A DNA stretch of 64,000 nt from Alphaproteobacteria bacterium (GTDB lineage Bacteria > Pseudomonadota > Alphaproteobacteria > JABAAW01 > JAHZMA01), in NCBI GenBank assembly GCA_965205905.1, contig CBDBHZ010000012.1, positions 316,445 through 380,444 of the forward strand. The letters run 5' to 3'. This document shows positions 1 through 23,591 of this stretch, piece after piece. Both the position numbers and the translations under genes were made by a program. The notes below the pieces were generated by a model that saw nothing but the letters and a program-made list of their open reading frames with translations, searched no databases and was not told the origin of the DNA. Positions within the stretch are counted from its first letter, which is position 1. Every line of letters starts with the position of its first letter.

Positions 1-288
1 TTTATCCGCAACCATGCCGAATCTGCCTATCACCCTTGCGGCACTGCCAAGATGGGCGATAAAAACGATAAAATGGCGGTGGTGGATAATGAATGCCGTG
101 TGATTGGGGTGCAAAATTTACGGGTGGCGGATAGTTCTATTTTTCCGCGAATCACCAATGGCAATTTGAATGCGCCGTCTATCATGGTGGGCGATAAGGC
201 ATCTGACCATATTTTAGGCAAGCCGTTACTGCCTGCTGAAAATCTTGAGGCGTTCACTCATCCAAATTGGCAAAAAAGCCAAAGATGA
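1..288 (+). CDS. GMC-family oxidoreductase (choline dehydrogenase-like), C-terminal fragment; 5' end lies outside the window
   Basis: Frame 1 is open from position 1 ([19 protein letters not shown]...[31 protein letters not shown]), which is typical of a GMC oxidoreductase C-terminus. Stop at 286-288. Confidence 0.6.
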
Positions 289-3228: not shown

Positions 3229-4551
3229 TTATCGCATCATGTTGATGATATTCATGGCATCAGCATTGGCATTCAAAGGCGGTTTTTTATGCAATTTCTT
3301 ATGCGATTCTTGTTTTAATGATAATGTTTTTATATCCGATTCTTGCCACATTTCTACCGACATATTATTATTTGGCATATGACTGTTGAAAACATTTTCA
3401 TCCTCAGCTTCTGCCCTGAAATCGGGCGGTGCTGCCAATAGCGGATTGCGTGGCGGTAATCCAACAGGTGCTTTTGCAGGATATAATTTTGCGCGCAAAT
3501 CGTTGATGGATATGCTTTCGCCATCACGTTCAACATGCCAATAAGTCCAGCCATTGCAACTGGGCAGGCCTTGCAAAGTTGCGCCAATCTTATGAATCGA
3601 GCCACGATGCGCCCCCGATTCGATACTGGCATCAGCATAAATTTTGGCAACAAAGCGTCTATCATTGCTAAATAAATCCTCACCCGCTTGTAGCAAGCCA
3701 CTTTCTAATAGATTACCAAAAGGAATGCGAATTTGATTGTTACGCGCAACACCTTTCATATAATGCTTCATTTTCGGTTCTAACTGCTTAATATCAGCGA
3801 GCCGTTGCGTGGCGACATCAATATAATCTTTTCGTTGCTCAACACCGATATAATTACGCCCTAATTTTTTGGCAACCGCAAGCGATGTGCCAGTGCCAGC
3901 AAAGGGGTCAAACACAATATGTCCGGGTTCGGTGCAGGCATTGATGATGCGGTAAAGCAAGGATTCAGGCTTTTGCGTGGGATGCGCTTTTTTGCCCGCC
4001 TCATCTTTCATACGCTCGCCACCCGTGCAAATCGGCAGATACCAATCCGAACGCATTTGCGTATCATCATTCATGCTTTTCAGCGATTGATAATTAAAGT
4101 GATATTTTGCCTTTGGCGATTTTACCGCCCATAGCAAAATTTCGTGAGCGTTGGTAAAACGTGTGCCACGAAAATTAGGCATCGGGTTAGATTTCACCCA
4201 AATCACATCATTGATAAGCCAGAAACCGTTATCCTGCAAAATTTTACCGATGCGGTAAATATTATGATAACTGCCAATCACCCATAATGACGCATCATCT
4301 TTCATGATACGTTTTGCGCCTGATAGCCATTGTTCGGTGAATGAATCATAATGGGCAAAATCGTCAAATTCGTCCCATTTTTCATTGACGCCATCAACCA
4401 TTGATTGGTCGGGGCGCGTTAAGTCGCTGTTGAGTTGTAAGAAGTAGGGGGGGTCTGCAAATACTAAATCTACAGATTCCGATGGCATATCCTGCATCAC
4501 TGATACAGAATCGCCCGCCACTACCCGATTTAGGGGTAAGTCGTTGAACAT
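3229..4551 (-). CDS. ccrM: cell-cycle-regulated DNA adenine methyltransferase CcrM (GANTC family) with ~75-aa low-complexity C-terminal extension
   Basis: Near-colinear match to CcrM: SVDLVFADPPYFLQL, GSYHNIYRIGKILQDNGFWLINDVIWVKSNPMPNFRGTRFTNAHE, HPTQKPESLLYRII, GSIHKIGA...CNGWTYWH. Conserved ccrM-rnhB synteny. Confidence 0.85.
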   Translation of the reverse strand: MFNDLPLNRVVAGDSVSVMQDMPSESVDLVFADPPYFLQLNSDLTRPDQSMVDGVNEKWDEFDDFAHYDSFTEQWLSGAKRIMKDDASLWVIGSYHNIYRIGKILQDNGFWLINDVIWVKSNPMPNFRGTRFTNAHEILLWAVKSPKAKYHFNYQSLKSMNDDTQMRSDWYLPICTGGERMKDEAGKKAHPTQKPESLLYRIINACTEPGHIVFDPFAGTGTSLAVAKKLGRNYIGVEQRKDYIDVATQRLADIKQLEPKMKHYMKGVARNNQIRIPFGNLLESGLLQAGEDLFSNDRRFVAKIYADASIESGAHRGSIHKIGATLQGLPSCNGWTYWHVERDGESISINDLRAKLYPAKAPVGLPPRNPLLAAPPDFRAEAEDENVFNSHMPNNNMSVEMWQESDIKTLSLKQESHKKLHKKPPLNANADAMNIINMMR

Positions 4552-4694
4552 TGTTATTGCCTCATATCCAAATGTTTTCTACATTATAATTGCTATGCTT
4601 CTGCATTTAGCAATATACGGTTTTCTACCATATTTTGTTATTGTAACCGAAACTGGCAGTCAAAATCAAGCCTATTCCCCATGCGGAATAAATT

Positions 4695-5294
4695 TCATTT
4701 TTGCAACAAGCTTTTAACAGGCTGATAGCTGGTGCGGTGATGGGGCGTGATATGGTGCTGTATCAGCGCGTTTACGTGGTTTTTGGTGCCATAACCCATA
4801 TTTTTCTGCCAATCATAATGCGGATAGCGTTGATGCAGACATCGCATTAATTTATCACGCAATGTTTTCGCCAAGATAGATGCGGCGGCAATCGCAAGAT
4901 GGCTATTATCGCCTTTCACGATGGCGATACTGGGTTCGTGCATATTATCGGGGGTTTTATTGCCATCAATCAAAAACTGCTTCACATTGATATGCGGATA
5001 GGCAAGCATCATATTATCGGCGGCGCGTTTCATGGCATTCATACTGGCGTTTAAGATATTGATGCGGTCGATTTCCCTCACCGATGCCGCGCCATAGCCA
5101 TAGGCGGTAAATTGGGTGATAGCAGTCGCTAATTGCTCGCGCTTGGTGGCGCTTAGTTTTTTACTATCGTTAATATCGGCGCAAAATGATGGCAATGTTT
5201 TATCGGGGAAGCAAACGCAAGCGCTGATAACAGGTCCTGCTAACGGACCTCTGCCTGCTTCGTCAATACCAGCATGAAAGGGCAGATGAATCAA
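4695..5294 (-). CDS. rnhB: ribonuclease HII
   Basis: GIDEAGRGPLAGPVISACV N-terminal motif; 199 aa. Confidence 0.85.
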   Translation of the reverse strand: MIHLPFHAGIDEAGRGPLAGPVISACVCFPDKTLPSFCADINDSKKLSATKREQLATAITQFTAYGYGAASVREIDRINILNASMNAMKRAADNMMLAYPHINVKQFLIDGNKTPDNMHEPSIAIVKGDNSHLAIAAASILAKTLRDKLMRCLHQRYPHYDWQKNMGYGTKNHVNALIQHHITPHHRTSYQPVKSLLQK

Positions 5295-6724
5295 GTCGAT
5301 TCTTTCTTATCCTTCTCACCATTTTTCATTGGCTTTTTTGATGCCGTCTTTTTTGGGGCATCACCAAATGCTGCATCGATTTCGTCTTGCAAGGGGTTTT
5401 TCTTGGTATTAAAACCACTCAACAGTAAAAACGGTTGCGCTAGCACGACCACCAGCGGGAACGCGAAAATCCGCGCCATGATTGTTTTCTTCTGCCCTGT
5501 TTGATTGAGATACATAGATGCAATCAAATCGGTAAGTGAGCCACCTGATGACAAGCCAGTTTTCTGCACGCGCCGTGCCGCATCAACACAAATCGGGCTG
5601 ATAATAAGCGACATAACGGTAACTGCTACCAAGAAACGTTGTAATTCGGGGTCGATAATGCCGATTGAAAGCGCAACTGTGCCAAACACAAACGAGAATT
5701 CACCCATTTGCCCTAACAACATGCCCCCCATAATTGCAAATGACCAACTTTCACGTAACATTCGCAAGGCAAGCACATTTAGCAATATCTTAAACACTGT
5801 CGCCACCAATAGCAACCCTAGCACCAGAAGGAAATTTTCAGCTAAGAAAGTCAAATCAATCAGCAAGCCGACCGATAAGAAAAACGCCATCATCAGAATC
5901 ACTTTAATGGGCTCAGTATTATGCATTGCAAAATCATGCTGTGCCGAATTGCCGATAATCAAGCCCGCCAAAAACGCGCCAAATGCAGGTGATAAGCCCA
6001 TCACGCCCGTTACAAGCGCAAAACCAAAACACCATGAGACCGCCGCTAACGGCGCTAAATCGGGTTTTGTGGTCAGCAAATCAGAGAATGGGAGATTAAT
6101 GTTCCCCTTTCGAATCAACAGCAAGATAACACCTACCAGTAAAGCGATAGAAAGCATCACTTCGGAACCAATGGTGACAACGCTAGAAAGCGTAGAGCGG
6201 TTATGCGATGAGGTGAAGCCGTTAAGAATCAGCAACATCGGCGCAACTGCCAAATCTTGGGCAATCAACACGCCCACCACTAACTGACCGATACGCGAAT
6301 TGCCCTCGCCAATCTCTTGAATGATGGTAACGGCAACCGCTGTGGAGGAAATAGCCAGACAGAATGAAAACAACACGGCTTGCGCTGTGGTAAGATAAAA
6401 CAGGCTTTTCAAGCCCCATACAATGCCCATAGAGCCGATGATTTGCAAAATAACAATCAGCACGGCCTTATGCCAGATTTTACGGAAAGATTGTAAGGAT
6501 AGCTCGATACCAATGAAATATAGCAGCAGAATAATGCCTAATTCTGCCAATAAAGCGATGGTTTTTTCTTCGGTTACAAATTCTAATCCGCTAGGGCCAA
6601 GAATAACACCTGCAAAAATATAGCCGATAATGGGCGGTTGCCGAAATTGCACCATCGTCATGCCACAAAAAGCACAACAAATGGCAATAATGCCAATCCC
6701 TAATAATTCACCGATACCATGCAT
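5291..6724 (-). CDS. cation:proton antiporter (CPA2/Kef-like membrane domain, no obvious KTN domain)
   Basis: About 12 predicted TM helices; Na+/H+-exchanger-family N-terminus (GYIFAGVILGPSGL). Confidence 0.65.
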   Translation of the reverse strand: MHGIGELLGIGIIAICCAFCGMTMVQFRQPPIIGYIFAGVILGPSGLEFVTEEKTIALLAELGIILLLYFIGIELSLQSFRKIWHKAVLIVILQIIGSMGIVWGLKSLFYLTTAQAVLFSFCLAISSTAVAVTIIQEIGEGNSRIGQLVVGVLIAQDLAVAPMLLILNGFTSSHNRSTLSSVVTIGSEVMLSIALLVGVILLLIRKGNINLPFSDLLTTKPDLAPLAAVSWCFGFALVTGVMGLSPAFGAFLAGLIIGNSAQHDFAMHNTEPIKVILMMAFFLSVGLLIDLTFLAENFLLVLGLLLVATVFKILLNVLALRMLRESWSFAIMGGMLLGQMGEFSFVFGTVALSIGIIDPELQRFLVAVTVMSLIISPICVDAARRVQKTGLSSGGSLTDLIASMYLNQTGQKKTIMARIFAFPLVVVLAQPFLLLSGFNTKKNPLQDEIDAAFGDAPKKTASKKPMKNGEKDKKEST

Positions 6725-6814
6725 GGAATTTTCATATCTCCGTCAAAAATTTCGCTATAGTAGCTTTTTTTGAGAGTAATTTAAACTGTTAAAATATTTT
6801 TTACTGAAAAAGGA

Positions 6815-7264
6815 TTAGATAAAAGGATTCGGTGGCATATTTTTTGGCAAATAGAGTGAATTTTGAAATTGTTCCACCCATTCCAAATAGCCATCAATAT
6901 CATCGGTTTTATAGCCAAGCAACTGCCCGATTCTACGTTCAATATCAGGTGTGATTTTACCATCAGGTTGATAGCATGATTCCAGCAACTGATATAATCT
7001 CTTGGCATCTTGTGTTTTATCGGCGGTAAAGAAAATCTTGAAAATCAGTTTTTTTGAACCACGTCGTCTCTGTTTTGCAGGATTTTGGGGTGCTATAGTC
7101 TCTAATGTAAGCGAAGAGAATGTTTCTTGATTGGCAAATTCAGCGGGCAGGGATTCGTTATGCAGTGCAAAAAGCGCAACATGTTTTTCACCTTTTTGCA
7201 TTAACTGCCATTCTAGCCCTTGATGCGGATTAACCGCTTGCGGTATATAAATATCATCTGGCAT
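6815..7264 (-). CDS. hypothetical protein
   Basis: ORF only; no family recognised. Start chosen at an internal Met. Confidence 0.3.
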   Translation of the reverse strand: MPDDIYIPQAVNPHQGLEWQLMQKGEKHVALFALHNESLPAEFANQETFSSLTLETIAPQNPAKQRRRGSKKLIFKIFFTADKTQDAKRLYQLLESCYQPDGKITPDIERRIGQLLGYKTDDIDGYLEWVEQFQNSLYLPKNMPPNPFI

Positions 7265-7328
7265 GATTGAACCCAATGTTGAATTTTGCAATGTAATACA
7301 TAATTTATGCGTTTGATACAAGAATATA

Positions 7329-8399
7329 ATGACAAATTTTCAACCCCACCGTTTTACTGTTGCCCCGATGATGGGCTATAGCCATCGCCACTTTCTTGCT
7401 TTTATGCGAATTATCAGCAAACATTGTCTGTTATTTACCGAAATGTTGCCGATAGCGGCGGTGGTTGCCAATCAGCAAAAATTATGCGATTGGCGGCATG
7501 ATAACGCGCCATTGATTGTGCAATTAGGTGGGTCTGATACCGCATTACTGGCGCAATCATGCAAAATTATCAGCGATTACGGTGGGGCAACTGGTGGGGC
7601 TGTGGGCATTAATCTTAATATGGGATGTCCGTCATCACGGGTGGAAAAGGGCGCGTTTGGCGCATGTTTGATGCTAGAACCAGAAAAAAGCGCATCATTG
7701 GTTGCGGCGATGAAACAAGCAACCTCTTTGCCTATCAGCGTTAAACTCCGCATTGGTGTGGATAGGGGAGGCGTTAATAAAAGCGGTGAGTATAGCGAGG
7801 AAGATGCCGAGAAACTCTATCATTTGATTGGTTTGCTGGTATCTGCGGGTGCCAGTGAGATTTATCTTCATGCCCGCAAAGCGATATTAAAGAAACTGAA
7901 CCCAAAACAGAATCGCAACATTCCGCCATTGCGTTATGATATTGCACAGGCTTGCAAGCAGAACTTTCCTGATGTGCCGATTATCGTTAATGGCGGTATC
8001 GATTCGATGGCGCAAGCAAAAACATTGTTGCAAGATTATGATGGGGTGATGATAGGGCGCGGCTGTATCAATCATCCGCTTCAATTTATGGGCATCGATA
8101 AGGAAATTTTTGGCGATGATGCTGATATGCCAAGCATCGATTCGATATTTCAGCAATATTTAGACTATATGTATCAAGAGTTGGCACGGGTTAAACAGGG
8201 CAATCATTCGGAACGCTATCAGCAAAAATCGGTGTATCATTTTATGTTGCAACCATTACTCACCTTTCTATATGGCATGAAAGGCGCGAAACAATGGCGG
8301 ATAATGGTCAATAATCTGTTCCAAAACCCTGAATTGCTACATGATAAAGCTTATATGCGGGATATGCGTGAAGTCTTACTGAATTTTTATGTTGAGTAG
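7329..8399 (+). CDS. dus: tRNA-dihydrouridine synthase (DusA-like)
   Basis: NLNMGCPSSRVEKGAFGACLM catalytic-Cys motif and TIM-barrel Dus layout. Confidence 0.8.
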   Translation: MTNFQPHRFTVAPMMGYSHRHFLAFMRIISKHCLLFTEMLPIAAVVANQQKLCDWRHDNAPLIVQLGGSDTALLAQSCKIISDYGGATGGAVGINLNMGCPSSRVEKGAFGACLMLEPEKSASLVAAMKQATSLPISVKLRIGVDRGGVNKSGEYSEEDAEKLYHLIGLLVSAGASEIYLHARKAILKKLNPKQNRNIPPLRYDIAQACKQNFPDVPIIVNGGIDSMAQAKTLLQDYDGVMIGRGCINHPLQFMGIDKEIFGDDADMPSIDSIFQQYLDYMYQELARVKQGNHSERYQQKSVYHFMLQPLLTFLYGMKGAKQWRIMVNNLFQNPELLHDKAYMRDMREVLLNFYVE

Positions 8400-8431
8400 T
8401 AGCAACACGGAACACCGCTAATATTGAGTAT

Positions 8432-8558
8432 GGCGGGGGGATTATCAAGGGTGAGGTTTGCCCGCCATTGGTACAAGGGCAAACCGAACTTGCATAGGTT
8501 TGTAGGGGTGCCGCCGCACCCCCCTTGATACATAAAACAACCTCGCAAAGCCCCCCAT
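8432..8558. repeat. GC-rich nested palindromic element (stacked hairpins) in the dusA / MTase-HNH convergent intergenic region
   Basis: Perfect 9-bp stem ggtttgccc(8456-8464)/gggcaaacc(8477-8485). Perfect 7-bp stem ggggtgc(8505-8511)-cgcc-gcacccc(8516-8522). Outer arms tatcaaggg(8443-8451)/cccttgata(8522-8530) and ggcgggggg/gccccccat. Confidence 0.5.
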
Positions 8559-8566
8559 ATATAGAC

Positions 8567-9808
8567 TCAACTATAATTAATCACTTCTCTCGCTTCTTTA
8601 ATTTTCTTCACCTTTGCAAGCAAATATTCCATTGGGCGATTGCCTTTTACGCGGTTACAATTGCCACATAAAAGCTGATAATTTTCGTAATAATCACCGC
8701 CTCCTTTTGACTTGGGAATCACATGGTCAATCTCAAGATTGCGCTGTTCAAATTCATTAAAGCAACCGTTACATTTTCCTGTTTGCGCTTTATGTAAACG
8801 TGTTTTAATTGGCTCTGCTGGTGCGATTCTCTCAACATCTGTTCGTTGCGGCGGAATGGTTGTATTGATAAAATCTGAAAACATGCCTGCATCACCTGAT
8901 AGACGTTCCACCAATATATCAGCGGCTTTTTCTTCAATATCACAGCCAATCCATTTGCGATTTAATTGTTGTGATGCCACGCAAGCAGTGGCACAGCCAC
9001 AAAACGGGTCGAATACCACATCGCCTTTGTTACTTGATGCTTTAATGATGCGATGCAGTAACGCAAGCGGTTTTTGTGTTGGGTATCCTGTGCGTTCTTT
9101 TGGTGAAATATGCCCACCAGCTGGTATATCAGTCCAGTAATCCGCGGGCAATCTACCCCTTGCGATATATTCTGCCTGAACATCCTTGTCTTGCAATTTG
9201 CCACCGCCATCACCCCATATAGCGGGTTTTTTGCCCTTATCTGAATTTAGTCTTTTATACGGAATTCTAACATCATCATCATTGAAAACCCAATCATCAC
9301 TTTTGCTATATCGTAATATAGTGTCATGCTTTTTTGGAAAATTATTGCGCGACCCACTAGGACCACTATAACACCATATAATTTCATTACGAAAATTATT
9401 CTTGCCAAAAATGCCATCCATAATGATTTTTAGATAATGGCTTGCGGTTGGGTCAATATGCACATAGATACTGCCTGTTACTTTTAATATTCTGTTCATC
9501 TCAAGCAATCTCTGTGTCATATAGGCAATATACGAAGCCATCGCTGTTGAATGCAGGCGATAGATGCTATCAATAAAATCAGCAATATCAGGGTGGGTTT
9601 CATAAAGCCTCTCAAGGTAAGCGATATTAACATCGTCCCAACGCCACATATCCTTAAATGATGCCCCTGCTGATTTACTACCTACTGGCGCAGAATAAGT
9701 GCGCTTGCTATTAAAAGGTGGGTCAAGATAGATGAGGTCAACTGATTCGCTATCCATGCCATTAAGCAGAAATAGATTATCCAATGTATAAAGGGTGTTA
9801 CTACTCAT
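8567..9808 (-). CDS. beta-class DNA amino-methyltransferase fused to C-terminal HNH endonuclease domain
   Basis: MTase part: SVDLIYLDPPFNSK (motif IV), NEIIW, GYPTQKPLALLHRII, DPFCGCATA (motif I). Tail: CNGCFN...IDHVIPKSKGG...N...CGNCNRVKGN, a canonical HNH. The start overlaps the fliN stop. Confidence 0.8.
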   Translation of the reverse strand: MSSNTLYTLDNLFLLNGMDSESVDLIYLDPPFNSKRTYSAPVGSKSAGASFKDMWRWDDVNIAYLERLYETHPDIADFIDSIYRLHSTAMASYIAYMTQRLLEMNRILKVTGSIYVHIDPTASHYLKIIMDGIFGKNNFRNEIIWCYSGPSGSRNNFPKKHDTILRYSKSDDWVFNDDDVRIPYKRLNSDKGKKPAIWGDGGGKLQDKDVQAEYIARGRLPADYWTDIPAGGHISPKERTGYPTQKPLALLHRIIKASSNKGDVVFDPFCGCATACVASQQLNRKWIGCDIEEKAADILVERLSGDAGMFSDFINTTIPPQRTDVERIAPAEPIKTRLHKAQTGKCNGCFNEFEQRNLEIDHVIPKSKGGGDYYENYQLLCGNCNRVKGNRPMEYLLAKVKKIKEAREVINYS

Positions 9809-10481
9809 TACTGGCATAAAACAGCGTATGATGCTCATCAATATCGGCAATCATATTCACCACGCGTATTTGAAAATACTCACCATCAGATTCCAAATGC
9901 CCTTGCCCGATAAGGTGATGCCCGATTTTCAATTCCAGACTGCTTTCAATATCTTTATCAATCTCAATAATCGCACCGCGCCCGATTTTCATTAATTGCT
10001 CAATGCGTAACTCGGTATTGCCGATTTCGGCAACAATTTGCAATGGCACACTCGCCATAGCGGTGGTCTCAATATCAAATCCCGGCACAGTTACAACGGT
10101 TGGCTCTACTTTTTGCACCGAAGCATGTTCACCTTCAGGGTCGATATTATATTTATGGTCTGTATGAGGAATATCTTGTTGCGTATTGCCATGATAAATA
10201 TCTTCTTCTTTTAAGATATCAGCAGTTTTTTCAGGGGATACCGCCTGTGCGGTTTGGTTGAGTAATGTGTCTATATCAAAATTATCGCCTAAAGTTTCAC
10301 CTTGCACACCATCGCGCGGTATATGCACAGCGCCTATAGTTTCTGGATTGGTGTTTGCTGGCATTATATTTTCTGGCATTATATTTTCTGGATTGGCATC
10401 ATTCAGAATCTGCGTTAAATCATCGGGCAACTGCCCATTATTAGCATTATTAAACTCATCAGCCATATTATCATCCTTCAT
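9801..10481 (-). CDS. fliN: flagellar motor switch FliN-like protein (SpoA domain) with acidic repetitive N-terminus
   Basis: C-terminus VPLQIVAEIGNTELRIEQLMKIGRGAIIEIDK...LIGQGHLESDGEYFQIRV is a FliN/SpoA domain. The N-terminus is low-complexity, D/E/N/P-rich. Confidence 0.6.
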   Translation of the reverse strand: MKDDNMADEFNNANNGQLPDDLTQILNDANPENIMPENIMPANTNPETIGAVHIPRDGVQGETLGDNFDIDTLLNQTAQAVSPEKTADILKEEDIYHGNTQQDIPHTDHKYNIDPEGEHASVQKVEPTVVTVPGFDIETTAMASVPLQIVAEIGNTELRIEQLMKIGRGAIIEIDKDIESSLELKIGHHLIGQGHLESDGEYFQIRVVNMIADIDEHHTLFYASNE

Positions 10482-10536
10482 ATAAGAATATCATCATATT
10501 TCGCACTATAGCATAATCACAGTGAAACAGTCAAAA

Positions 10537-11544
10537 TCAAACTTTTGCCATGATTCTAGCAACATCAATCATGCGGAGCGAGAATGCCCATTCATTATCA
10601 TACCATGCGCCAACACGGATAAAATCATCGGCAATAATTTGCGTCTGCCCCATATCAAAGATACAGCTTGCGGGGTGATGCGTGAAATCAATCGATACCA
10701 GTGGCTCATCACTATAGGCAAGCACATTTTTTAGTTCATTTTCGCTTGCCTTGATAATCGCCTGATGAATCGTATCAACACTCACTTTTTTGCGCGCTGA
10801 GAATGTTAAATCAACAAAGGATACATTGGCGGTTGGCACGCGCATAGAACAGCCATCTAATCGCCCTTCAAGTTCTGGAATAACCTGACTGACCGAGCTT
10901 GCCGCACCCGTTGTGGTTGGCACAATAGAAAGCCCCGCAGCCCGCGCACGGCGGAAATCCTTATGGCTGGCATCAACCAGATTTTGGTCGCCCGTATAAG
11001 CATGAATCGTCGTCATGTAACCTTTTTCTATGCCCGCAACCTCATTCATGATTTTGGCAAGGGGGGCAATGCAGTTGGTGGTGCAAGAAGCGTTAGAAAT
11101 AACTTTATGGTCAGGCTTAATAGCGTGATGGTTAATGCCATAAACCACCATTAAATCAGCTTGCTTGCAAGGCGCTGATACCAATATTTTTTTGGCACCG
11201 CCAATGGTAATATGTTGCTCTGCCGCTTTTTTATCGTTAAATTTACCACTACATTCTAGCACAATATCAACATTATGTGCGCGCCAATCTATCGTCTGTA
11301 AATCGCGGCTGTTCATTAAAGCCACTTTGCCATGTGGGGTGATAAGAGTGTCGCCCTCAATGCTAACAGGCACATTGCAAACGCCATGCACAGAATCATA
11401 TTTCAGCAAATGTTGGGCAAGTTCGGGCTTGCTGATGGCATTGAGTGCGCTGATATGATAATCGGGGTTGGGGTCTTCTAACCATGCGCGGAATATTAAC
11501 CTACCGATGCGTCCAAATCCGTTGATAGCCCATTGTTGTAACAT
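10537..11544 (-). CDS. gap: glyceraldehyde-3-phosphate dehydrogenase
   Basis: INGFGRIGR and SCTTNC motifs; 335 aa. Confidence 0.9.
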   Translation of the reverse strand: MLQQWAINGFGRIGRLIFRAWLEDPNPDYHISALNAISKPELAQHLLKYDSVHGVCNVPVSIEGDTLITPHGKVALMNSRDLQTIDWRAHNVDIVLECSGKFNDKKAAEQHITIGGAKKILVSAPCKQADLMVVYGINHHAIKPDHKVISNASCTTNCIAPLAKIMNEVAGIEKGYMTTIHAYTGDQNLVDASHKDFRRARAAGLSIVPTTTGAASSVSQVIPELEGRLDGCSMRVPTANVSFVDLTFSARKKVSVDTIHQAIIKASENELKNVLAYSDEPLVSIDFTHHPASCIFDMGQTQIIADDFIRVGAWYDNEWAFSLRMIDVARIMAKV

Positions 11545-11637
11545 TTTATTCTCCTTATATCAGCAATATGCAAGTAATTTAACGATAATTATGTTTAAAA
11601 TCAAGTTGGTGATTAAAATTTGTTATCAAACTGAGAG

Positions 11638-12456
11638 TTATTTTTCATTATATTTAGGGTCGCTATATGGAATATCTTCAGGGTTAGCTAGACTGATATT
11701 GCTATATAAATCTTCAGACCGCTTTAAGAATAGCATCAAAATATCAGCGGCATTTGAGGTAAAGTTAAAAATTGTATGTTCAAAAACAAGATTTTCACCG
11801 GGTTTTATCGGCTTGGGTGGCATTTTGACACGGGTAACATATTCCTCAGTCCCATAGATATTGACAAGCGAAAGACGCAATGTTGGCACAACAGCCTCTT
11901 GCCCACTCACATTGGTAATGGTGCTTCTAATATTTAAGATTCTCTCTAAATTTCTAAATTGCACTGAAAACTGGGTGTCGGTAATAACAAAACCCTTCAC
12001 ATTGGTTTTTTCATCTACATCCAGATTAACAGTGTTATAAATTTTTGAGAGGGCAGGGAATTGTGCCACTAATATATCGCGGTAAAATACCGAATAGGTT
12101 ACCATAGAAAAAGTAACCACAATCAGAATAAGCCATGCGGTGAAAATAAGACTTTGCCGAACGCGTCTGCTTTGATAATCCGAAACATAAGCCGATTTCA
12201 GCAGTGATGGCATGTTATCACCGGGTAGCCTATCAATCGCAATCGCATCATGTCCGCCATAAGAAATAGAGGGCGCTGCACCATCATCAAGAAACACATC
12301 AACCGAAACATCTGTTTCGGGAATATCAGCATAGATGGCGGGGTCTACAAACCATTCATGGTTGCAAATACCACATTGCACCTGTTTGCCAACACTCTCT
12401 AATGCGCTTTTTCTTACATCAAAAATCGATGTGCAATAGGGGCAGGAAATATGCAT
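11638..12456 (-). CDS. MJ0042-type zinc-ribbon / DUF3426-like membrane protein
   Basis: MHISCPYCTS...VQCGICNHEW zinc ribbon, one TM segment, C-terminal DUF3426-like region. An upstream in-frame Met at 12528 is possible. Confidence 0.45.
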   Translation of the reverse strand: MHISCPYCTSIFDVRKSALESVGKQVQCGICNHEWFVDPAIYADIPETDVSVDVFLDDGAAPSISYGGHDAIAIDRLPGDNMPSLLKSAYVSDYQSRRVRQSLIFTAWLILIVVTFSMVTYSVFYRDILVAQFPALSKIYNTVNLDVDEKTNVKGFVITDTQFSVQFRNLERILNIRSTITNVSGQEAVVPTLRLSLVNIYGTEEYVTRVKMPPKPIKPGENLVFEHTIFNFTSNAADILMLFLKRSEDLYSNISLANPEDIPYSDPKYNEK

Positions 12457-12656
12457 ATATTTGTCTCTATTATCAGTAGCATGGTTGCTATTACGATATA
12501 ACATAAACAGTCTAAGGCTAGCAAGCAATCAGTTTATGATAAAATATTATAATTGCACTGTATAAATATGCCTTGCTGTGTTAATATTGCAAAAAGTAAC
12601 GACATATAATATTACCAGCGATGTCGCTTACATATTGAGGGGATGATTGCTTTAAG

Positions 12657-13922
12657 ATGCAGGAAAATATAACAAACAGAACGATTTTCTGCCGTGATAA
12701 TCTTGATATTATGCGGGGGATGGATACAGAATCTATCGACCTCATCTATCTTGACCCACCTTTTAACACAAAAAAAACATTTACTGCCCCGATTGGCAGC
12801 AGTGCAGAGGGGGCTTCGTTTTCTGATATTTTCCGTGAAGAAGATGTGAAAGATGAGTGGTTGCTAGATATTAAAGAAGATTTTTTTTCTATCCATGAAT
12901 TTCTAAATTCTGTCAAAAATATAGAAGGGCGCACATCTTATAATTTTTGTTATCTTGCTTATATGGCGATTCGATTGATAGAATGCCATCGTATCTTAAA
13001 AGATACGGGTAGCCTATATTTACATTGCGACCCAACCATGAGCCATTATTTAAAAATTCTGCTAGATTGTATTTTTGGTGAGAAGAAATTTAGGAATGAA
13101 ATTATATGGAGTTACCAACGGTGGACGGGCGCAACAAAGAATTTTCAAAAAATGCACGATATTATTTTATTTTATGCCAAAAACAACAATAACTTTACCA
13201 TGATTAGCGAGCCCTATAGCGATAAATCAAAACATAAGGGGCGGCGATTTACAACCACGCAAAAGGGCGCCATCACAGGTCAAGAATATATCAATGCGAA
13301 CCGCGAAAAAGCAATGCGTGACGTTTGGGAAATATCAATATTGAATAGCCAAGCCAAAGAGCGCACGGGCTATCCCACTCAAAAACCTCTTGCTTTGCTA
13401 GAACGCATTATCAAAGCCTCTTGCCCCGAAAATGGTATCGTGCTTGACCCCTTTTGCGGTTGCGCCACCACATGTATTGCGGCTGAACGATTGGGCAAAA
13501 AATGGATAGGCATTGATATATCAGTAAAAGCTTACGAATTGGTGCGTGAGAGGCTGGCAAAAGAAGTGGAGTGGGAAGATAGCCTGTTCCATGAAGAGTT
13601 GGTGAATTTTCAAACAAATCCGCCTAACCGCACTGATATTGGGCAAGATACGCAAGTAAAAAAATATGTCTATATTATATCGCATCAGCAATATCAGGGC
13701 GAATATAAAGTCGGGATTGCGTCTGATGTAAAATCAAGGCTGAATAGCTATCAAACGGGCGATCCTAACCGTGCCTATCACTTAGAATATTCATTTCATA
13801 CGCCATATTTTCGGGCGATAGAAAACTATATTCATGAAAAATATGATAATAAACATGAATGGGTGAGTGGTGAATTAAAGGATATTATTAAAGATATTGA
13901 AAATTATCAATCAAACGGGTAA
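12657..13922 (+). CDS. beta-class DNA amino-methyltransferase fused to C-terminal T5orf172/GIY-YIG-like domain (paralogue of 8567-9808)
   Basis: SIDLIYLDPPFNTK, NEIIW, GYPTQKPLALLERII, DPFCGCATT, colinear with the HNH-fused paralogue. Tail YVYIISHQ...YKVGIASDVKSRLNSYQTGDP...EKY...HEWV fits the T5orf172 (PF10544-like) pattern. Confidence 0.75.
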   Translation: MQENITNRTIFCRDNLDIMRGMDTESIDLIYLDPPFNTKKTFTAPIGSSAEGASFSDIFREEDVKDEWLLDIKEDFFSIHEFLNSVKNIEGRTSYNFCYLAYMAIRLIECHRILKDTGSLYLHCDPTMSHYLKILLDCIFGEKKFRNEIIWSYQRWTGATKNFQKMHDIILFYAKNNNNFTMISEPYSDKSKHKGRRFTTTQKGAITGQEYINANREKAMRDVWEISILNSQAKERTGYPTQKPLALLERIIKASCPENGIVLDPFCGCATTCIAAERLGKKWIGIDISVKAYELVRERLAKEVEWEDSLFHEELVNFQTNPPNRTDIGQDTQVKKYVYIISHQQYQGEYKVGIASDVKSRLNSYQTGDPNRAYHLEYSFHTPYFRAIENYIHEKYDNKHEWVSGELKDIIKDIENYQSNG

Positions 13923-13966
13923 TATCATATATAACTATAAAAATGGTTCGGAGGTAAAAGATAAGA

Positions 13967-14554
13967 GTGATGACTGATAAGCAAATAATCTATATTGGTA
14001 TGGGGAGCAATGTCGGTGATAGGAATCAGCATTTTAATAGAGCGATTGCTGTTTTATCGCAAAATATAGAGATACAACAATTATCGCATCGCTTTGTTAG
14101 CAAGGCAATGTATAACACCCAACAAGATGATTTCTTAAATATGGTGATACGTGGCGCAAGCTTTATGTCGGCACGCCAGATACTCACCTTCTTTAAGCAG
14201 ATTGAACAAAGTTTTGGACGTGATTTACAGGCGGCGCGCTATGGCCCACGTCCGCTTGATATAGATTTGCTATTTTATGGCAACCATATCATTGATGAGG
14301 CTGACTTAAAAGTGCCGCACCCCTTATTGTATGAGCGCAATTTCGTGCTAGAGCCGTTAGTGCAAGTGGCTGATAATGATTTTTACGACCCTCATTCAGG
14401 CAAACGTGCAACGCAACTATTGACAGATTTGTTTCGCAATCAGGGCAGAACAATTCCTTTTGCTACCAAGCATGAGCCAGCATCGCGTGTTGTGAAGCCG
14501 CTTTATCAAAAAGCATCGCAAGCCCAACCGACCATCCGAAAGCTTGTCTTGTGA
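13967..14554 (+). CDS. folK: 2-amino-4-hydroxy-6-hydroxymethyldihydropteridine pyrophosphokinase
   Basis: IYIGMGSNVGDR...LDIDLLFYG...HPLLYERNFVLEPL are HPPK signatures. Confidence 0.8.
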   Translation: MMTDKQIIYIGMGSNVGDRNQHFNRAIAVLSQNIEIQQLSHRFVSKAMYNTQQDDFLNMVIRGASFMSARQILTFFKQIEQSFGRDLQAARYGPRPLDIDLLFYGNHIIDEADLKVPHPLLYERNFVLEPLVQVADNDFYDPHSGKRATQLLTDLFRNQGRTIPFATKHEPASRVVKPLYQKASQAQPTIRKLVL

Positions 14555-16395
14555 TTGCTGATTATCTTAATGACTTTCACATGTGGGCAGTATTTGCGAT
14601 TGTTGTGGGGAGTTTTTATCTTTATGCCAGTCAAAAATTACCGATGGAGGTAACGGCATTTGGTATTATTGTCGCCCTTATTTTATTATTTTATATCGCG
14701 CCATATCAAAAACAGGTTTTGGATTATCAAGATTTACTGTTTGGTTTTGCCAACCCCGCGCTTATCACATTGCTATGTTTGCTGGTGTTGGGCGAGGCTG
14801 TAAATCGCACAGGCATGTTAGATAGGCTAACTGAAAAAATCATTAAAATTGCTGCGGGCTATCGCATGATAGCGATTATTTTCTCGTTCACGATTGTGCT
14901 GGTGATTAGCGGTTTTCTTAATAATATTCCGGTGGTGATGCTGTTTATTCCAGTGATTTTCAAAATCTGTCGACGTTTCCGCGTGCCGCCCGGTCGCTAT
15001 ATGATGTCGCTCAGTTTCTTTTCAATATTAGGCGGGATGACGACGTTAATCGGCTCTTCTACAAATCTTTTGGTGTCGTCGGCATTGATTGCGATGGGCA
15101 GAGAGGGTTTTGACTTTTTCACTTTTACCGCGCCCGGTATCATCATGGTGATTAGTGGTGGTTTTTATGTGTTCTTTATCATGCCGTTTATTATGAAGCA
15201 TTTAGGCGAGCAGAAAACGCCCGCCGAAAGCCATGAACGCGATATTTTCTTTATGCAATTTACCCTTAATGATGAGTTGAAATTGGTGGGTAAAAGCGCG
15301 GATGGTGAGGGAAAATTTGAAGAGTTGCCTGATACAGTTCAGTTGCAATTTGTGAAACGCGGTAAGAAAATATTTCATCCGCCTTTTCAATCGGTAACCT
15401 TAAATAAAGGCGATGTGATGGTGGTGGCGGCAACCCAAGAAGAATTTGAAAAAATGAGCCAAAATCAAAGCCTTGAAGTGTTTTCTGGCAATGTTGACAA
15501 TGATGATGAGCATAAAGCAGAAGTAAAGCCAGAGGTAAAATCATTGGGACGTGCCGAAGTGGTGGTGGTGCCAAATTCATCAATGGTGAATCGCACCATC
15601 AGCTCCATCCGCTTTTTTGACCGCTATGATTGTGCAGTGCTAGGCATTAAGCGCAAGCGGGCAAAGATTACCCAACAGATTGATGATGTTAAACTTGAGG
15701 GTGGTGATGTTTTATTATTGCAAGGCGACCGTGAGAGTCTGTTGCAATTAAAGCGCAGCCGCAATATGATTCTGATGGAGCACTCGCTCAGCGAAGTGAG
15801 TTCAGTCAATTTTCTCAAACGTTCGGTATTGATTTTTAGCTTGGTGATGCTGTTTGCTGCCACTGGCACTGTGCCGATTTTGTTAGCGACCTTAGTGGGC
15901 GTGTTGGCGATGTTTGTCTTAAAAATTATCAGTGTACCTAATGCGTTAGGGGTAATGGATGGTAAAATCATTCTGGTGATTAGCGCGTCATTGGCGTTGG
16001 GATTGGCGTTAGAGGTAACTGGCGGTGCCAGCCTTATCGCGATATTATTTGTGCAATTAATGGGCAACAGCTCACCTGCCATCGTGCTATCGCTGTTTTT
16101 CCTCATCACGGCTTTATTATCTAATATGCTTTCTACCAAAGCGACAGCGGTTTTATTCACGCCGATTGCGGTTGGCATTGCGAATCATTTGGGCGTTGAT
16201 GCTTTGCCATTTGTGATTGCGGTTGTGTTTGCTTCTAATTGTTCATTTGCATCACCGATTGGTTATCAAACCAATCTGCTGGTGATGGGACCGGGTGGCT
16301 ATGAGTTTAAAGATTTCTTGAAAGCAGGCTTGCCTTTGATTATGGTATGCTGGCTAACATTTACTGTGTTGGCATTTACTTTCTTTAATTTATAA
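14551..16395 (+). CDS. SLC13/DASS-superfamily permease with two internal TrkA-C domains
   Basis: Two multi-TM halves flank two TrkA-C-like segments (VVVPNSSMVNRTISSI..., LQFVKRGKKIFHP...). Confidence 0.6.
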   Translation: MIADYLNDFHMWAVFAIVVGSFYLYASQKLPMEVTAFGIIVALILLFYIAPYQKQVLDYQDLLFGFANPALITLLCLLVLGEAVNRTGMLDRLTEKIIKIAAGYRMIAIIFSFTIVLVISGFLNNIPVVMLFIPVIFKICRRFRVPPGRYMMSLSFFSILGGMTTLIGSSTNLLVSSALIAMGREGFDFFTFTAPGIIMVISGGFYVFFIMPFIMKHLGEQKTPAESHERDIFFMQFTLNDELKLVGKSADGEGKFEELPDTVQLQFVKRGKKIFHPPFQSVTLNKGDVMVVAATQEEFEKMSQNQSLEVFSGNVDNDDEHKAEVKPEVKSLGRAEVVVVPNSSMVNRTISSIRFFDRYDCAVLGIKRKRAKITQQIDDVKLEGGDVLLLQGDRESLLQLKRSRNMILMEHSLSEVSSVNFLKRSVLIFSLVMLFAATGTVPILLATLVGVLAMFVLKIISVPNALGVMDGKIILVISASLALGLALEVTGGASLIAILFVQLMGNSSPAIVLSLFFLITALLSNMLSTKATAVLFTPIAVGIANHLGVDALPFVIAVVFASNCSFASPIGYQTNLLVMGPGGYEFKDFLKAGLPLIMVCWLTFTVLAFTFFNL

Positions 16396-16421
16396 TATTA
16401 TTTTTTGAAAAGGATTGATAG

Positions 16422-18215
16422 ATGCATGATTATCGGACGCATCATTGTTACGAATTGACTCTGAAACAAGCGGGGAACTCTGTTAAATTATCGGGTTGGG
16501 TAGATAGAAAACGCGACCATGGCGGTTTATTATTTATTGATTTGCGCGATATGTATGGTATCACGCAATGTGTGGTGGAAGAAAATTCACCCTTATTTGC
16601 TGAGCTCACCAATGTACCACTAGAATCAGTACTTTGTGTTGATGGTGAGGTGCAACCGCGCACTGCCGAAACCATCAATAAAGATTTAGGCACAGGCGAG
16701 ATTGAAGTCCGCGTGAGGCAAGTTGAAATGTTATCGGAAGCGGCGGCATTGCCGATGCCCGTTAATCAGGAAAGCAGTGATTATCCTGAAGATATAAGGT
16801 TGCGCTATCGTTATCTGGATTTACGAAAGCGTGATATGATGAATAATATTATATTGCGTAACCGTGTGGTGAAACTATTGCGGGAAAAAATGCACGCCCG
16901 TGGTTTTCAAGAGTTTCACACGCCGATTCTAACGGCAAGCTCGCCCGAAGGTGCGCGTGATTTTTTGGTGCCTAGCCGTTTGCATCCGGGTAAATTTTAC
17001 GCATTGCCACAAGCACCGCAACAATTTAAGCAATTATTGATGGTGGCAGGGTTTGATAAATATTTCCAAATCGCGCCATGTTTTCGCGATGAAGATGCGC
17101 GCCGAGACCGCTCGCCCGGTGAGTTTTATCAGCTGGATTTTGAAATGGCATTCGCCACCCAACAAGATGTGTTTGATGTGATTGAACCCGTGCTTCACGA
17201 ATTATTTACCGAATGTTCCGATAAAACAGTTAGTCCCTATCCGTTTCAGCAAATCACCTATCATGATGCGATGAATAAATATGGCTCGGATAAGCCCGAT
17301 TTGCGTAATCCGTTATTGATACAAGAAGTTACCGAAATTTTTGAAGGCTCTGATTTTAAGATTTTTGCAAAATTGATTGCTGAAAAAGACTTTATCGTTC
17401 GTGGTATTATCGTGCCAGATGCGGCAGCACAGCCACGTTCATTCTTTGACAAGCTCAATGATTGGGCGCGGTCGGCAGGGCAGGCAGGGCTTGGCTATAT
17501 CAGCTTTAAAATGGAAGGTAGCGAGGGCGGTGAAGGCCCTATTGCGAAAAATCTTGACGATGCACGGATTGCTCAATTAAAACAACTCACCAATATTAAG
17601 CAGGGCGATGCGGTGTTTTTTGCATGTGGTAAGCCGCATGAATCAGCGCAATTTGCAGGGCAGGCGCGGACTAAAATTGCCGAAACGCTGGATTTGATTA
17701 AGAATGATTCATTCCAATTTTGTTGGATTACTGATTTTCCATTTTATGAGCTTGATGAAAAAACAGGCAAAGTGATTTTCTCGCATAATCCTTTTTCTAT
17801 GCCACAAGGCGGGTTAGATGCGCTTAATAATAGTGACCCACTCGCGATTAAAGCATGGCAATATGATATTGTGTGTAATGGGATTGAGCTTTCATCAGGG
17901 GCGATTCGAAATCATCGCACTGATATAATGCTGAGAGCGTTTGAAATTGCGGGCTATTCTAAAGAGCAAGTGGAACAAGAATTTGGCGGTATGCTAACCG
18001 CATTTTCGTATGGTGCGCCACCACATGGCGGGGCGGCACCAGGTCTTGAGCGCATTGTGATGTTATTGGCTGATACGCCGAATATTCGCGAGATTGTGCC
18101 ATTCCCAATGACGCAAACCGCGCAAGATTTAATGACGGGCGCACCGCTTGCGATTGATGAGAAGCTGTTAGAAGAGGTGCATATTCGCGTGAAAATGCCG
18201 ATTTTACCTGAATAA
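16422..18215 (+). CDS. aspS: aspartate--tRNA ligase
   Basis: 597 aa; class II AspRS motifs ([19 protein letters not shown]). Confidence 0.9.
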
Positions 18216-18239
18216 CTGCCTTGATTAATGAGATAAAAT

Positions 18240-23574: not shown

Positions 23575-23591
23575 CCATCACCAATAAGAGA

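Follow-up and report, generated by a model that had tools for sequence, protein, structure and literature searches.

At this locus, which lies in 64,000 nt of alphaproteobacterial DNA (the window), two genes that each fuse a DNA methylase to a predicted nuclease tail are found around a short run of minus-strand genes. The original prediction had described this fusion pair together with lone fliN-like, gap and DUF3426 genes on the minus strand and a GC-rich palindrome, and all of these features are present at the positions given below. Its picture of a reduced, AT-rich chromosome is only loosely right, with a GC content of 42.5%.

3229..4551, minus strand: CcrM orthologue (PF01555 plus RAMA), identified by a full-length match to NF050803 (555 bits), Pfam and synteny
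7329..8399, plus strand: dusA, a flanking host gene whose last ~5 codons and stop are supplied by insertion 1
8384..9800, minus strand: insertion 1, ~1.42 kb, with the methylase-HNH gene and 183 bp of 3′ non-coding DNA including the palindrome
8393..8401, plus strand: left copy of a 9-bp inverted repeat, TGAGTAGTA, which supplies the new dusA stop codon
About 8425..8560, no strand: GC-rich nested palindrome with predicted folds, a putative REP-like dispersed repeat
8567..9808, minus strand: methylase-HNH fusion gene, 413 aa, beta-class amino-methyltransferase
9103..9366, minus strand: target-recognition domain (TRD) of the HNH-type gene
9799..9807, minus strand: right-hand counterpart of that 9-bp repeat; the methylase-HNH gene starts here (ATGAGTAGTAAC), in overlap with the fliN stop codon
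9801..12528, minus strand: ancestral conserved fliN-like/gap/DUF3426 block, with order and orientation kept in L086, L087, L088 and L203
9801-10481, minus strand: fliN-like gene encoding an FliMN_C protein (Pfam, NCBIfam)
10537-11544, minus strand: gap, encoding GAPDH (Pfam, NCBIfam)
11638-12528, minus strand: Zn-ribbon/DUF3426 gene (Pfam, NCBIfam)
12588..13938, plus strand: insertion 2, ~1.35 kb, made up of a 69 bp leader, the methylase-T5orf172 gene and a 16 bp trailer
12657..13922, plus strand: methylase-T5orf172 fusion gene, 421 aa, a member of the beta-class DNA amino-methyltransferase family
13107-13361, plus strand: TRD of the T5orf172-type gene, about residues 151-235
13617-13919, plus strand: T5orf172 (GIY-YIG-like) tail, residues about 321-421
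13967..14554, plus strand: folK, a flanking host gene in the same orientation as the T5orf172-type gene, starting 44 nt beyond it

The minus-strand ORF at 8567-9850 matches PF01555 N6_N4_Mtase (E 2e-48) and PF01844 HNH (E 2e-12) in Pfam, and the plus-strand ORF at 12657-13922 matches PF01555 (E 3e-52) and PF10544 T5orf172 (E 2e-10). We place the true start of the HNH gene at the ATG at 9808-9806 because the N-termini in the family alignment read MSSN or MTxN. Because this start overlaps the final fliN codons (AAT GAG TAG), the gene belongs to the minus-strand run DUF3426-gap-fliN as its last member, coupled to it in translation. Thus, the two fusion genes do lie on divergent strands, as the original prediction had it, but the HNH gene is not the separate outward-facing unit it was taken for. 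The encoded proteins are paralogues (42% identity over 382 aa) with the same scaffold layout, in which motif IV (DPPF) lies near the N-terminus, a variant of motif I (DPFCGCAT) lies in the C-terminal half, and a linker contains PPQRTD in the HNH-type and PPNRTD in the T5orf172-type protein. In PADLOC, methylase models of Type II and Type III are the best matches.

The HNH tail (residues about 321-413) carries two CxxC pairs and D-H...N...N residues, resembles the Cas9/IscB/group II intron type, and has D361, H362, N376, C346, C349, C381 and C384 invariant in the family alignment (A7). In the T5orf172 tail, Y339, K351-V352-G353, E389, N398, E401 and W402 are invariant and R361 nearly so (A8). 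The AF2 model of this tail (pLDDT 84) has a beta-beta-alpha-beta-alpha topology, and the PDB entries that match it best are without exception GIY-YIG proteins, though the matches are weak (Foldseek, E 0.24-2). Together with Pfam and NCBI naming, the topology and these matches weakly suggest that the tail is GIY-YIG-like, and it might instead serve in DNA binding only. The dN/dS is 0.07-0.14 for the HNH tail, 0.08 for the T5orf172 tail and 0.03-0.14 for every module, and the nuclease tails are under purifying selection.

The surrounding genes were compared with empty sites in two lineages, one close (L087/L088) and one distant (L203). L087 and L088 are collinear with window positions 4039-22890 at ~85% nucleotide identity, except that they lack 8368/8384-9800 and 12590-13969 and with them both methylase genes. 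The outgroup L203 (GAPDH 65%) has the identical gene order, again with both fusion genes absent; the order common to all three is aspS-CitMHS-folK/DUF3426-gap-fliN/dusA-...-rnhB-ccrM. Because these genomes keep the order without either gene, the window holds two insertions into an ancestral block. Insertion 2, which separates the divergently oriented DUF3426 and folK, is missing in L087, L088 and L203 and found in L086 (90% nucleotide identity), where a T5orf172-type gene occupies the same site as in the window. The L086 copy is 89.4% identical at the nucleotide level with flanks alike at 88-93%, which shows that the gene was in all probability inherited vertically along with them. The L086 and L203 contigs, like that of L004 discussed below, are low-coverage long-read sequences with frameshifts. 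Both the insertion polymorphism and its polarity are established by this comparison, which supports two separate, derived, gene-sized insertions into a housekeeping block, one of the arrangements the original prediction had offered.

The other arrangements it had offered, in which the fusion genes bracket a mobile fliN-gap-DUF3426 cassette or arose by local inverted duplication and tail swapping, are scarcely credible in light of these data. They take their appeal from divergently oriented paralogues 2.8 kb apart with inverted similarity at the coding level (I1 and I2; 70%). The supposed cargo is, however, ancestral: L087, L088 and L203 keep the block and its flanks in synteny while lacking both fusion genes, and each methylase type occurs alone in other contexts (L001, L201 and L004). 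Duplication at the locus is rejected because the paralogues are 42% identical but relatives at other loci are 72-89% identical, and it also runs against the vertical descent of the L086 gene. Inverted repeats beyond the coding paralogy do not appear in a self-comparison, which returns only I1 and I2; the one exception is the 9-bp repeat that bounds the HNH insert.

At insertion 1, collinearity with L087 is broken at 8367/8384 and restored at 9801, and ~1 nt in L087 replaces the insertion. In L203, fliN and dusA are separated by 2 nt, and in relatives the 3′ ends of dusA and fliN either overlap or abut. The 9-mer of the inverted repeat occurs twice in 64 kb (0.07 expected), both times at the ends of insertion 1. 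Its right-hand sequence is native to the methylase-HNH gene, because the L201 copy at another locus also starts ATGAGTAGC. Extended, the left repeat reads ATG TTG AGT AGT AGC AAC ACG and resembles an inverted remnant of the 5′ end of the methylase gene. The L087 empty site is GTGAGTAG, which gives 7 nt of microhomology where the insert meets fliN. Neither insertion has a recognisable direct target-site duplication at its junctions.

The intergenic DNA at 8400-8566 folds into nested GC-rich stems, with a GC content of 0.52 that peaks at 0.59 per 100 nt (window, 0.425) and folding z-scores of -2.6 and -2.0, one per strand. The palindrome is single copy within the 64-kb window and has no match in Rfam. 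Its termini (GGGGGATTATCAAGGG...CCCCCTTGATA and TCGCAAAGCCCCCCATATAT) are found again in L004, in the ribA/polA spacer and as a tandem pair at 19110-19340, and no palindrome lies downstream of the L001 and L201 methylase-HNH copies. By this distribution the palindrome is most likely a dispersed, lineage-specific REP-like repeat and no general part of the methylase unit.

The HNH-type gene has relatives of 72-76% identity that follow dnaA in L001 and a BCCT transporter gene in L201, and an 89% identical relative of the T5orf172-type gene lies 11 nt past lolD (L004). Nucleotide similarity to the L004 copy is confined to 12654-13935, and that to the L201 copy spans 9808-9367 and 9102-8574. Similarity among copies thus ends within a few bases of the ORF, and the mobile unit is approximately one ORF. 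No transposase, integrase or tRNA was found for either insertion. Methylase polymorphism is present among relatives, as the original prediction had envisaged, while the compositional deviation it expected is absent: the GC content of the ORFs is 0.40 and 0.385 against 0.39-0.46 in neighbouring genes, and their GC3 is 0.33 and 0.37 against 0.35-0.46. Relatives across phyla are 60-76% identical, which suggests that the fusion genes have spread by horizontal transfer.

The scaffolds in the family alignments are near-identical across copies that carry unrelated TRDs. The TRD of the HNH-type gene cannot be aligned at the nucleotide level with its closest relatives, although its flanks are 80-85% identical (blastn against L201 and L001). 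In protein alignment, alphaproteobacterial relatives of this gene have at least 8 unrelated TRDs, and the TRD in the window matches those of proteins from Ignavibacteria and Bacteroidia (P0006 and P0007). L005 has a tandem array of six genes, in which 5 full copies are nearly identical except for wholly different TRDs. The tails vary as well: the nearest 110 scaffold representatives (50%-identity clusters) include 55 with HNH, 9 with Mrr_cat, 7 with NA-iREase1, 6 with T5orf172 and 1 with RE_Alw26IDE tails. TRD replacement is therefore modular and nuclease folds are interchangeable on one scaffold; the swapping of tails did occur, deep in the history of the families and elsewhere than at this locus. 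Iyer et al. (PMC4738411) include HNH and T5orf172 in their list of nuclease domains from N6A restriction-modification systems. With thousands of members each, both fusion families are very large and apparently uncharacterised.

We favour the reading, at a probability of roughly 0.6, that the two genes are separate ORF-sized insertions encoding putative single-polypeptide restriction-modification-like enzymes that move as units. Each unit inserted where one gene meets the next and points the same way as a host gene, on whose transcription it can draw. Each encoded protein has four modules: an N-terminal catalytic part, an exchangeable TRD, a C-terminal AdoMet-binding part and a small nuclease tail. 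The methylase part would mark the genome at sites that the TRD recognises, and the tethered HNH or GIY-YIG-like nuclease would nick or cut unmarked DNA. TRD shuffling would generate new specificities, and the units may move by a microhomology- or recombination-mediated route.

The mobility of these genes could also be that of homing-type selfish genes, whose tail serves mainly for mobilisation and nicks or cuts the empty allele or other TRD-chosen sites, so that repair copies the ORF in; the methylase would then protect the carrier, and any defence would be incidental. Free-standing homing endonuclease genes encode nucleases of the HNH and GIY-YIG families. ORF-sized units between conserved genes, presence or absence at identical sites among close relatives, copies at several unrelated loci with several per contig, and the microhomology and unique inverted repeat at the ends of insertion 1 would all fit such a life cycle. 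We nevertheless regard it as unlikely, since the same scaffold also bears restriction-type tails (Mrr_cat/PD-(D/E)XK), and the hypervariable TRDs are better explained by diversifying selection for new targets than by homing to one fixed site. Homing also leaves arrival at new loci without homology unaccounted for, and the families are rare in phages, where homing genes thrive: cultured phages and plasmids have essentially no full-length fusions, and IMG/VR yields three full-length matches of the HNH type and zero of the T5orf172 type.

Invariance of the HNH catalytic D-H and N and of both zinc CxxC pairs across phyla, tail dN/dS values of about 0.1 and the exchange of three unrelated nuclease folds at one position make it improbable that the genes are horizontally acquired, solitary epigenetic methylases with a non-cleaving DNA-binding or regulatory tail. 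A DNA-binding function was first proposed for T5orf172, CcrM also has a non-catalytic C-terminal domain (RAMA), neither fusion gene adjoins a separate restriction gene and both lie inside host operons, all of which is in line with such a role. However, CcrM and Dam hold one specificity, whereas the TRDs of the fusion genes are freely swapped.

The restriction-modification-like reading invites comparison with known systems. Like Type IIC/IIG/IIL enzymes (e.g. MmeI-like), the fusion genes combine methylase and predicted nuclease in one chain with one shared TRD, change specificity by TRD swap or mutation, and are sporadic and horizontally transferred. Known combined enzymes (Type IIG, IIL and most IIC) join a gamma-class methylase to an N-terminal PD-(D/E)XK nuclease, whereas the methylase here is beta-class (PF01555) and the predicted HNH, T5orf172 or Mrr-type tail is C-terminal. 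The same beta-class PF01555 fold is found in Type III Mod: in AF2 structure comparison the Mod subunits 6k0w, 7dsu and 4zcf are matched, PADLOC MTase_III models match as well, and Mod proteins of phasevarions (modA/modH) likewise have conserved N- and C-terminal parts around a hypervariable, recombination-exchanged recognition domain. The fusion genes differ in having no Res helicase-nuclease partner and no phase-variable repeat tract that we noted, and in carrying the nuclease on the methylase rather than as a separate ATP-dependent subunit. The phage T4 homing genes seg (GIY-YIG) and mob (HNH) resemble them in nuclease type, ORF-sized insertion and same-site presence/absence polymorphism, but here a ~90-aa tail sits on a full methylase in cellular chromosomes.

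In Helicobacter and others, Kobayashi-type observations reportedly include restriction-modification units inserted with operon-level precision and 'domain movement' of TRDs. Those units are alike in inserting between conserved genes without classical mobility genes and in having recognition domains that move among paralogues, but they are multi-gene systems or Type I, III or IIG enzymes. Post-segregational killing would be weaker for a fused methylase-nuclease than for a two-gene system, which speaks against a restriction-modification-like role. The first 14 kb of the window contain four PF01555 genes, including a 308-aa methylase (267-1193) and the CcrM orthologue, which lies 4 kb away and is kept beside rnhB in L087 and L203. 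The fusion genes share with CcrM the beta-class N6-adenine methylase fold, but they score 77 bits against a CcrM model cutoff of 830, have no RAMA domain and carry variable TRDs, and they are not kept in relatives.

The two methylase-nuclease fusion genes most probably entered this locus separately, as ORF-sized accessory genes inserted at two points of a long-standing block of housekeeping genes, a reading to which we assign a probability of about 0.9. The layout itself, which the original prediction described as a methyltransferase fusion pair around a minus-strand fliN-gap-DUF3426 block, is borne out by the ORF listing and Pfam.

Features of the locus, in window coordinates unless a relative's contig is named
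7329-8399: dusA, left flank
8393-8401 (plus) and 9799-9807 (minus): 9-bp inverted repeat TGAGTAGTA, unique in the window
8425-8560: GC-rich palindromic intergenic repeat, also at 2902-2975 and 19110-19340 of contig L004; termini GGGGGATTATCAAGGG / CCCCCTTGATA and TCGCAAAGCCCCCCATATAT
8567-9850, minus strand: ORF of the methylase-HNH fusion (PF01555 and HNH; Pfam)
9801-10481, minus strand: FliMN_C protein (ORF listing and Pfam)
10537-11544, minus strand: GAPDH (ORF listing and Pfam)
11638-12528, minus strand: Zn-ribbon/DUF3426 protein (ORF listing and Pfam)
12657-13922, plus strand: methylase-T5orf172/MUG113 fusion (PF01555 and T5orf172; Pfam)
13967-14554: folK, right flank

According to family alignments, the HNH gene truly starts with the ATG at 9808 and encodes 413 aa. 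The overlap of this start with the final codons of fliN makes the gene the last member of the minus-strand run, to which it is translationally coupled. The two window methylases share 42% identity over 382 aa and belong to a set of four PF01555 genes in the first 14 kb of the window (267-1193, plus; 3229-4551, minus; 8567-9808, minus; 12657-13922, plus). The CcrM orthologue is the gene at 3229-4551, which has a RAMA domain and matches NF050803 at full length (555 bits). The fusions differ from CcrM in that they score 77 bits against a cutoff of 830, contain no RAMA domain and are absent from the relatives L087 and L203.

Comparison with these relatives was decisive for the origin of the locus, for which a cassette, two insertions and an inverted duplication had been proposed. 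The loci L087/L088 (ENA ERZ23491653 scaffold_612 and GCA_022599655.1 JAHZLX010000082.1), reached via GAPDH homologues with 90% identity, are collinear by blastn with window 4039-22890 at ~85% nucleotide identity, except for two gaps at which window 8368-9800 is represented by 16 nt in L087 and window 12590-13969 by 37 nt. Junction alignments narrow the extra DNA to ~8384-9800 (insertion 1, with the HNH gene) and ~12588-13938 (insertion 2, with the T5orf172 gene), and in L087 the 3′ end of dusA overlaps the stop of fliN. A distant relative, L203 (GAPDH 65%), keeps the order aspS-CitMHS-folK, DUF3426-gap-fliN, dusA-hyp-Na/H-rnhB-ccrM and folP, with neither methylase gene and a fliN-dusA distance of 2 nt. 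Since so distant a relative retains the order without both genes, the empty state is ancestral. Two independent insertions, as one of the proposals had it, are thus supported by collinear relatives that lack both genes. In L086 (~90% nucleotide identity), whose contig ends before the HNH site, a T5orf172-type gene occupies the same site, with 89.4% identity for the gene and 88-93% for its flanks. The contigs L004, L086 and L203 come from long reads at low coverage and contain frameshifts. A GAPDH scan of JGI metagenomes returned 80 loci, of which none was syntenic or more than 55% identical. When the interval was compared with itself in a dot-plot, the sole long inverted similarity was the coding paralogy itself (inverted matches I1 and I2, 70%). 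The compositional deviation for which the original prediction had proposed a check was absent, as both genes have GC and GC3 values within, or slightly under, those of the neighbouring genes.

Both genes have far closer relatives elsewhere than each other in the window. For the HNH type, these relatives are a gene of L001 (72% identity), which lies 51 nt downstream of dnaA on a contig with no other similarity to the window, and P0002 (76% identity), encoded 115 nt downstream of a BCCT transporter gene in L201/L202. The T5orf172 type is 89% identical (85% at the nucleotide level) to an L004 gene located 11 nt after lolD, and the nucleotide similarity to L004 is limited to 12654-13935, from 3 nt before the ATG to 13 nt past the stop. 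All copies seen have the same orientation as the host gene next to them. A protein scan of genome contigs with the HNH protein returned only L001 and two distant methylases, with no direct synteny. Exact look-ups of the window HNH product, GAPDH, P0001, P0003 and P0005 gave no record, and the cluster look-up gave no names.

The insertions do not resemble a transposon, IS or integron cassette, as no transposase or integrase is encoded in the interval 6-17 kb of the window, the junctions of neither insertion show a recognisable direct target duplication, and the only inverted repeat is the one of 9 bp at the HNH insert. There is no tRNA gene near the insertions either. A prophage or plasmid origin was also rejected, because the fusions are nearly absent from phage, plasmid and IMG/VR collections. 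Full-length HNH-type fusions occur there in three records each at <60% identity (46-48% in IMG/VR), full-length T5orf172-type fusions in none, and the matches otherwise cover the methylase domain only, at ≤49% identity.

At the fliN junction of insertion 1, the HNH gene starts ATGAGTAG, a 5′ sequence shared by the L201 copy at another locus, and the empty site of L087 reads GTGAGTAG at the fliN stop; this match defines a 7-nt microhomology across the junction. The window has only two copies of the 9-mer TGAGTAGTA, against an expectation of 0.07, and they lie in inverted orientation at both ends of insertion 1. Its left copy now provides the dusA stop codon and continues ATG TTG AGT AGT AGC AAC ACG (M L S S S N T) to a stop codon at 8419-8421, and thereby looks like an inverted relic of the HNH gene's own 5′ end. 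Terminal inverted repeats were not found by inspection at the L001, L201 or T5orf172 units, and were rejected as a general feature of the unit on this basis.

The spacer between dusA and the methylase contains nested GC-rich stems (GC 0.52 vs 0.425 for the window). This palindrome lies inside insertion 1 and is not part of the unit elsewhere, being absent from the L001 and L201 copies, and its termini recur in L004 in the ribA-polA spacer and in a tandem pair. It is a lineage-specific REP-like repeat, single-copy in the window. An integron cassette, in which the palindrome would serve as an attC site 3′ of the ORF, was rejected because in L004 the repeat occurs away from methylases and an integrase is missing; the lack of the palindrome at the L001 and L201 copies also counters this reading. 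A sensitive Rfam search on the palindrome gave no match, and ARAGORN and Rfam at the gathering threshold found no tRNA genes or RNA families in the 64-kb window, which indicates that the palindrome is neither a known RNA nor an attachment site of the tRNA-like kind.

Both proteins match PF01555 over profile positions 1-220 of 221 (E 2e-48 for the HNH gene, 3e-52 for the T5orf172 gene) and have the permuted beta-class motif order, in which the catalytic motif is followed by a variable region and then by the AdoMet-binding motif. DPPF lies at residues 29-32 of the HNH gene product and 33-36 of the T5orf172 gene product, and DPFCGCAT at residues ~267-274 and ~264-271, respectively. An AF2 model of the T5orf172-type protein matches the solved beta-class methylases M.BceJIV, CcrM, RsrI and MboIIA (E 1e-13 to 4e-15; target-normalised TM up to 0.74). 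Alignments reveal a four-part design: a conserved N-terminal catalytic part of ~150 aa with DPPF; a target-recognition module (TRD) of 70-140 aa that is wholly different between proteins near-identical in their other parts; a conserved AdoMet-binding part, KERTGYPTQKPLALL...DPFCGCAT; and a PPxRTD linker followed by the tail. At the nucleotide level, the window HNH gene aligns with the L201 and L001 genes on either side of 9103-9366 and not across it. Its TRD resembles proteins of Ignavibacteria and Bacteroidia, while its scaffold is alphaproteobacterial.

These families are large and widespread. Each family search returned at least 8000 matches, with 60-76% identical relatives in Ignavibacteria, Bacteroidia, Planctomycetes, Fibrobacteres, Gammaproteobacteria and Alphaproteobacteria, and the fusion architecture is kept in all but one of the 240 matches listed. 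Many contigs contain several copies. At 7262-15485 of contig L005, downstream of an EpsG-like gene, six T5orf172-type genes form a tandem array in which one copy is split or truncated and the five full copies are near-identical outside the TRD and unrelated inside it. This suggests gene conversion of scaffolds while specificities diversify. An exhaustive search with the methylase part alone gave 3298 clusters (50% identity) at E ≤ 1e-30, and the tails among the 110 nearest cluster representatives were HNH (55), Mrr_cat (9), NA-iREase1 (7), T5orf172 (6) and RE_Alw26IDE (1). The same search returned P0361, a 1598-aa protein with four separate stretches that match the methylase scaffold, which may be a fused multi-methylase or a tandem-array read-through.

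The nuclease tails of both window genes are conserved. The HNH tail matches PF01844 (E 2e-12), and across 18 sequences from several phyla D361, H362, N376, C346, C349, C381 and C384 are invariant, including the D-H, the N and both CxxC pairs, with N385 conserved in at least 90%. The T5orf172 tail matches PF10544 (E 2e-10), PF13455 (E 9e-7) and phrog_5032 (E 1e-17). Since Foldseek with the whole protein reported the methylase domain alone, a separate model of the tail was used, and AF2 gave a beta-beta-alpha-beta-alpha fold (pLDDT 84) whose best PDB matches are all GIY-YIG proteins (1zg2, 1ywl, Slx1, HIGLE), albeit weak ones (E 0.24-2, TM 0.3-0.56). The family alignment shows no variation at Y339, K351-V352-G353, E389 and N398 and almost none at R361; these residues correspond to the GIY-YIG Tyr, Lys/Tyr-x-Gly, Arg, Glu and Asn positions. 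Between copies, dN/dS is 0.03-0.14 in every module, tails included.

The functional reading we prefer, to which we give roughly an even chance from sequence, is that the fusions would act as single-chain restriction-modification-like enzymes. This is suggested by the presence of methylase and nuclease domains in one polypeptide, where one recognition module serves both the methylase and the tethered nuclease; by the interchange of unrelated nuclease folds, including the restriction-type Mrr_cat, at one position; by the shuffling of TRDs, as in Type I, Type III and Type IIG systems; and by a patchy, horizontally transferred distribution, with presence or absence among close relatives and 60-76% identity across phyla. 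Iyer et al. list HNH and T5orf172 among the nuclease domains linked to N6A methylases (PMC4738411). A literature search for T5orf172- or HNH-methyltransferase fusions found no experimental characterisation, and as far as searched, these beta-class methylase-nuclease fusion families are uncharacterised.

The main rival is a homing-like role, in which the nuclease would work chiefly for the propagation of its own gene. Boundaries that coincide with the ORF, together with the junction features of insertion 1, fit such a role, for which the pattern seen is presence/absence only (L087 and L203 without the genes, the window with them). The homing-type and restriction-modification readings are not mutually exclusive. 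It is possible, although in our judgement improbable, that the fusions constitute a minimal self-mobilising element of one ORF without a transposase. In that case, a nuclease tail guided by the TRD would make a break, the gene would be inserted or copied at the ends of genes via microhomology or repair, and its own methylase would protect the carrier. The footprints of such a process would be the 7-nt microhomology, the 9-bp inverted repeat with the 5′-end relic, unit boundaries that coincide with the ORF at four loci, and tandem arrays in which the scaffolds are homogenised.

The locus provides a clean filled-versus-empty comparison for two very abundant methylase-nuclease fusion families. 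If the fusions are active one-protein restriction-modification enzymes, they would define a new class of architecture whose recognition domains are modular by nature, useful for methylation-motif prediction in metagenomes and possibly for engineered programmable methylases or nickases. Should their spread be driven by the nuclease, they would rank with the smallest autonomous mobile genes so far known from bacteria. In genome annotation, the fusion genes are to be treated as accessory insertions, outside the host's conserved CcrM-type epigenetic machinery.

Several smaller observations concern the locus and its relatives. At the left junction of the T5orf172 insertion the window, unlike L086, has a 25-nt segment between TAATAT(T) direct repeats (within 12579-12612), and this segment creates a promoter-like TTAATA-18-TATAAT site (12581-12610). 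Promoter and terminator scans gave chance-level results. The L004 contig with the second T5orf172-type copy contains split murJ and tRNA-synthetase (PF00579) genes and an ankyrin-repeat protein (13304-15232, 15262-16245); the split genes may be assembly frameshifts, or pseudogenes that hint at a host-associated lifestyle. The window CcrM orthologue has 440 aa vs 394 aa for the L203 protein, and the 308-aa methylase at 267-1193 (plus) overlaps the mlaC end by 18 nt. In the fliN-like gene, the N-terminal half has a 15-nt tandem repeat at 10335-10399 that encodes PENIM-type repeats, and is by far the most diverged part of the block relative to L087 (74.5% nucleotide identity, 69 gap positions); the L203 gene as called encodes only 93 aa. 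Further along, a 1322-aa protein without a confident domain, conserved in L087, adjoins two MotB_plug paralogues and a CheZ-like gene (18240-22208 and 22168-24236, both minus), so that the FliN-like gene is not the sole flagellar gene of the region.
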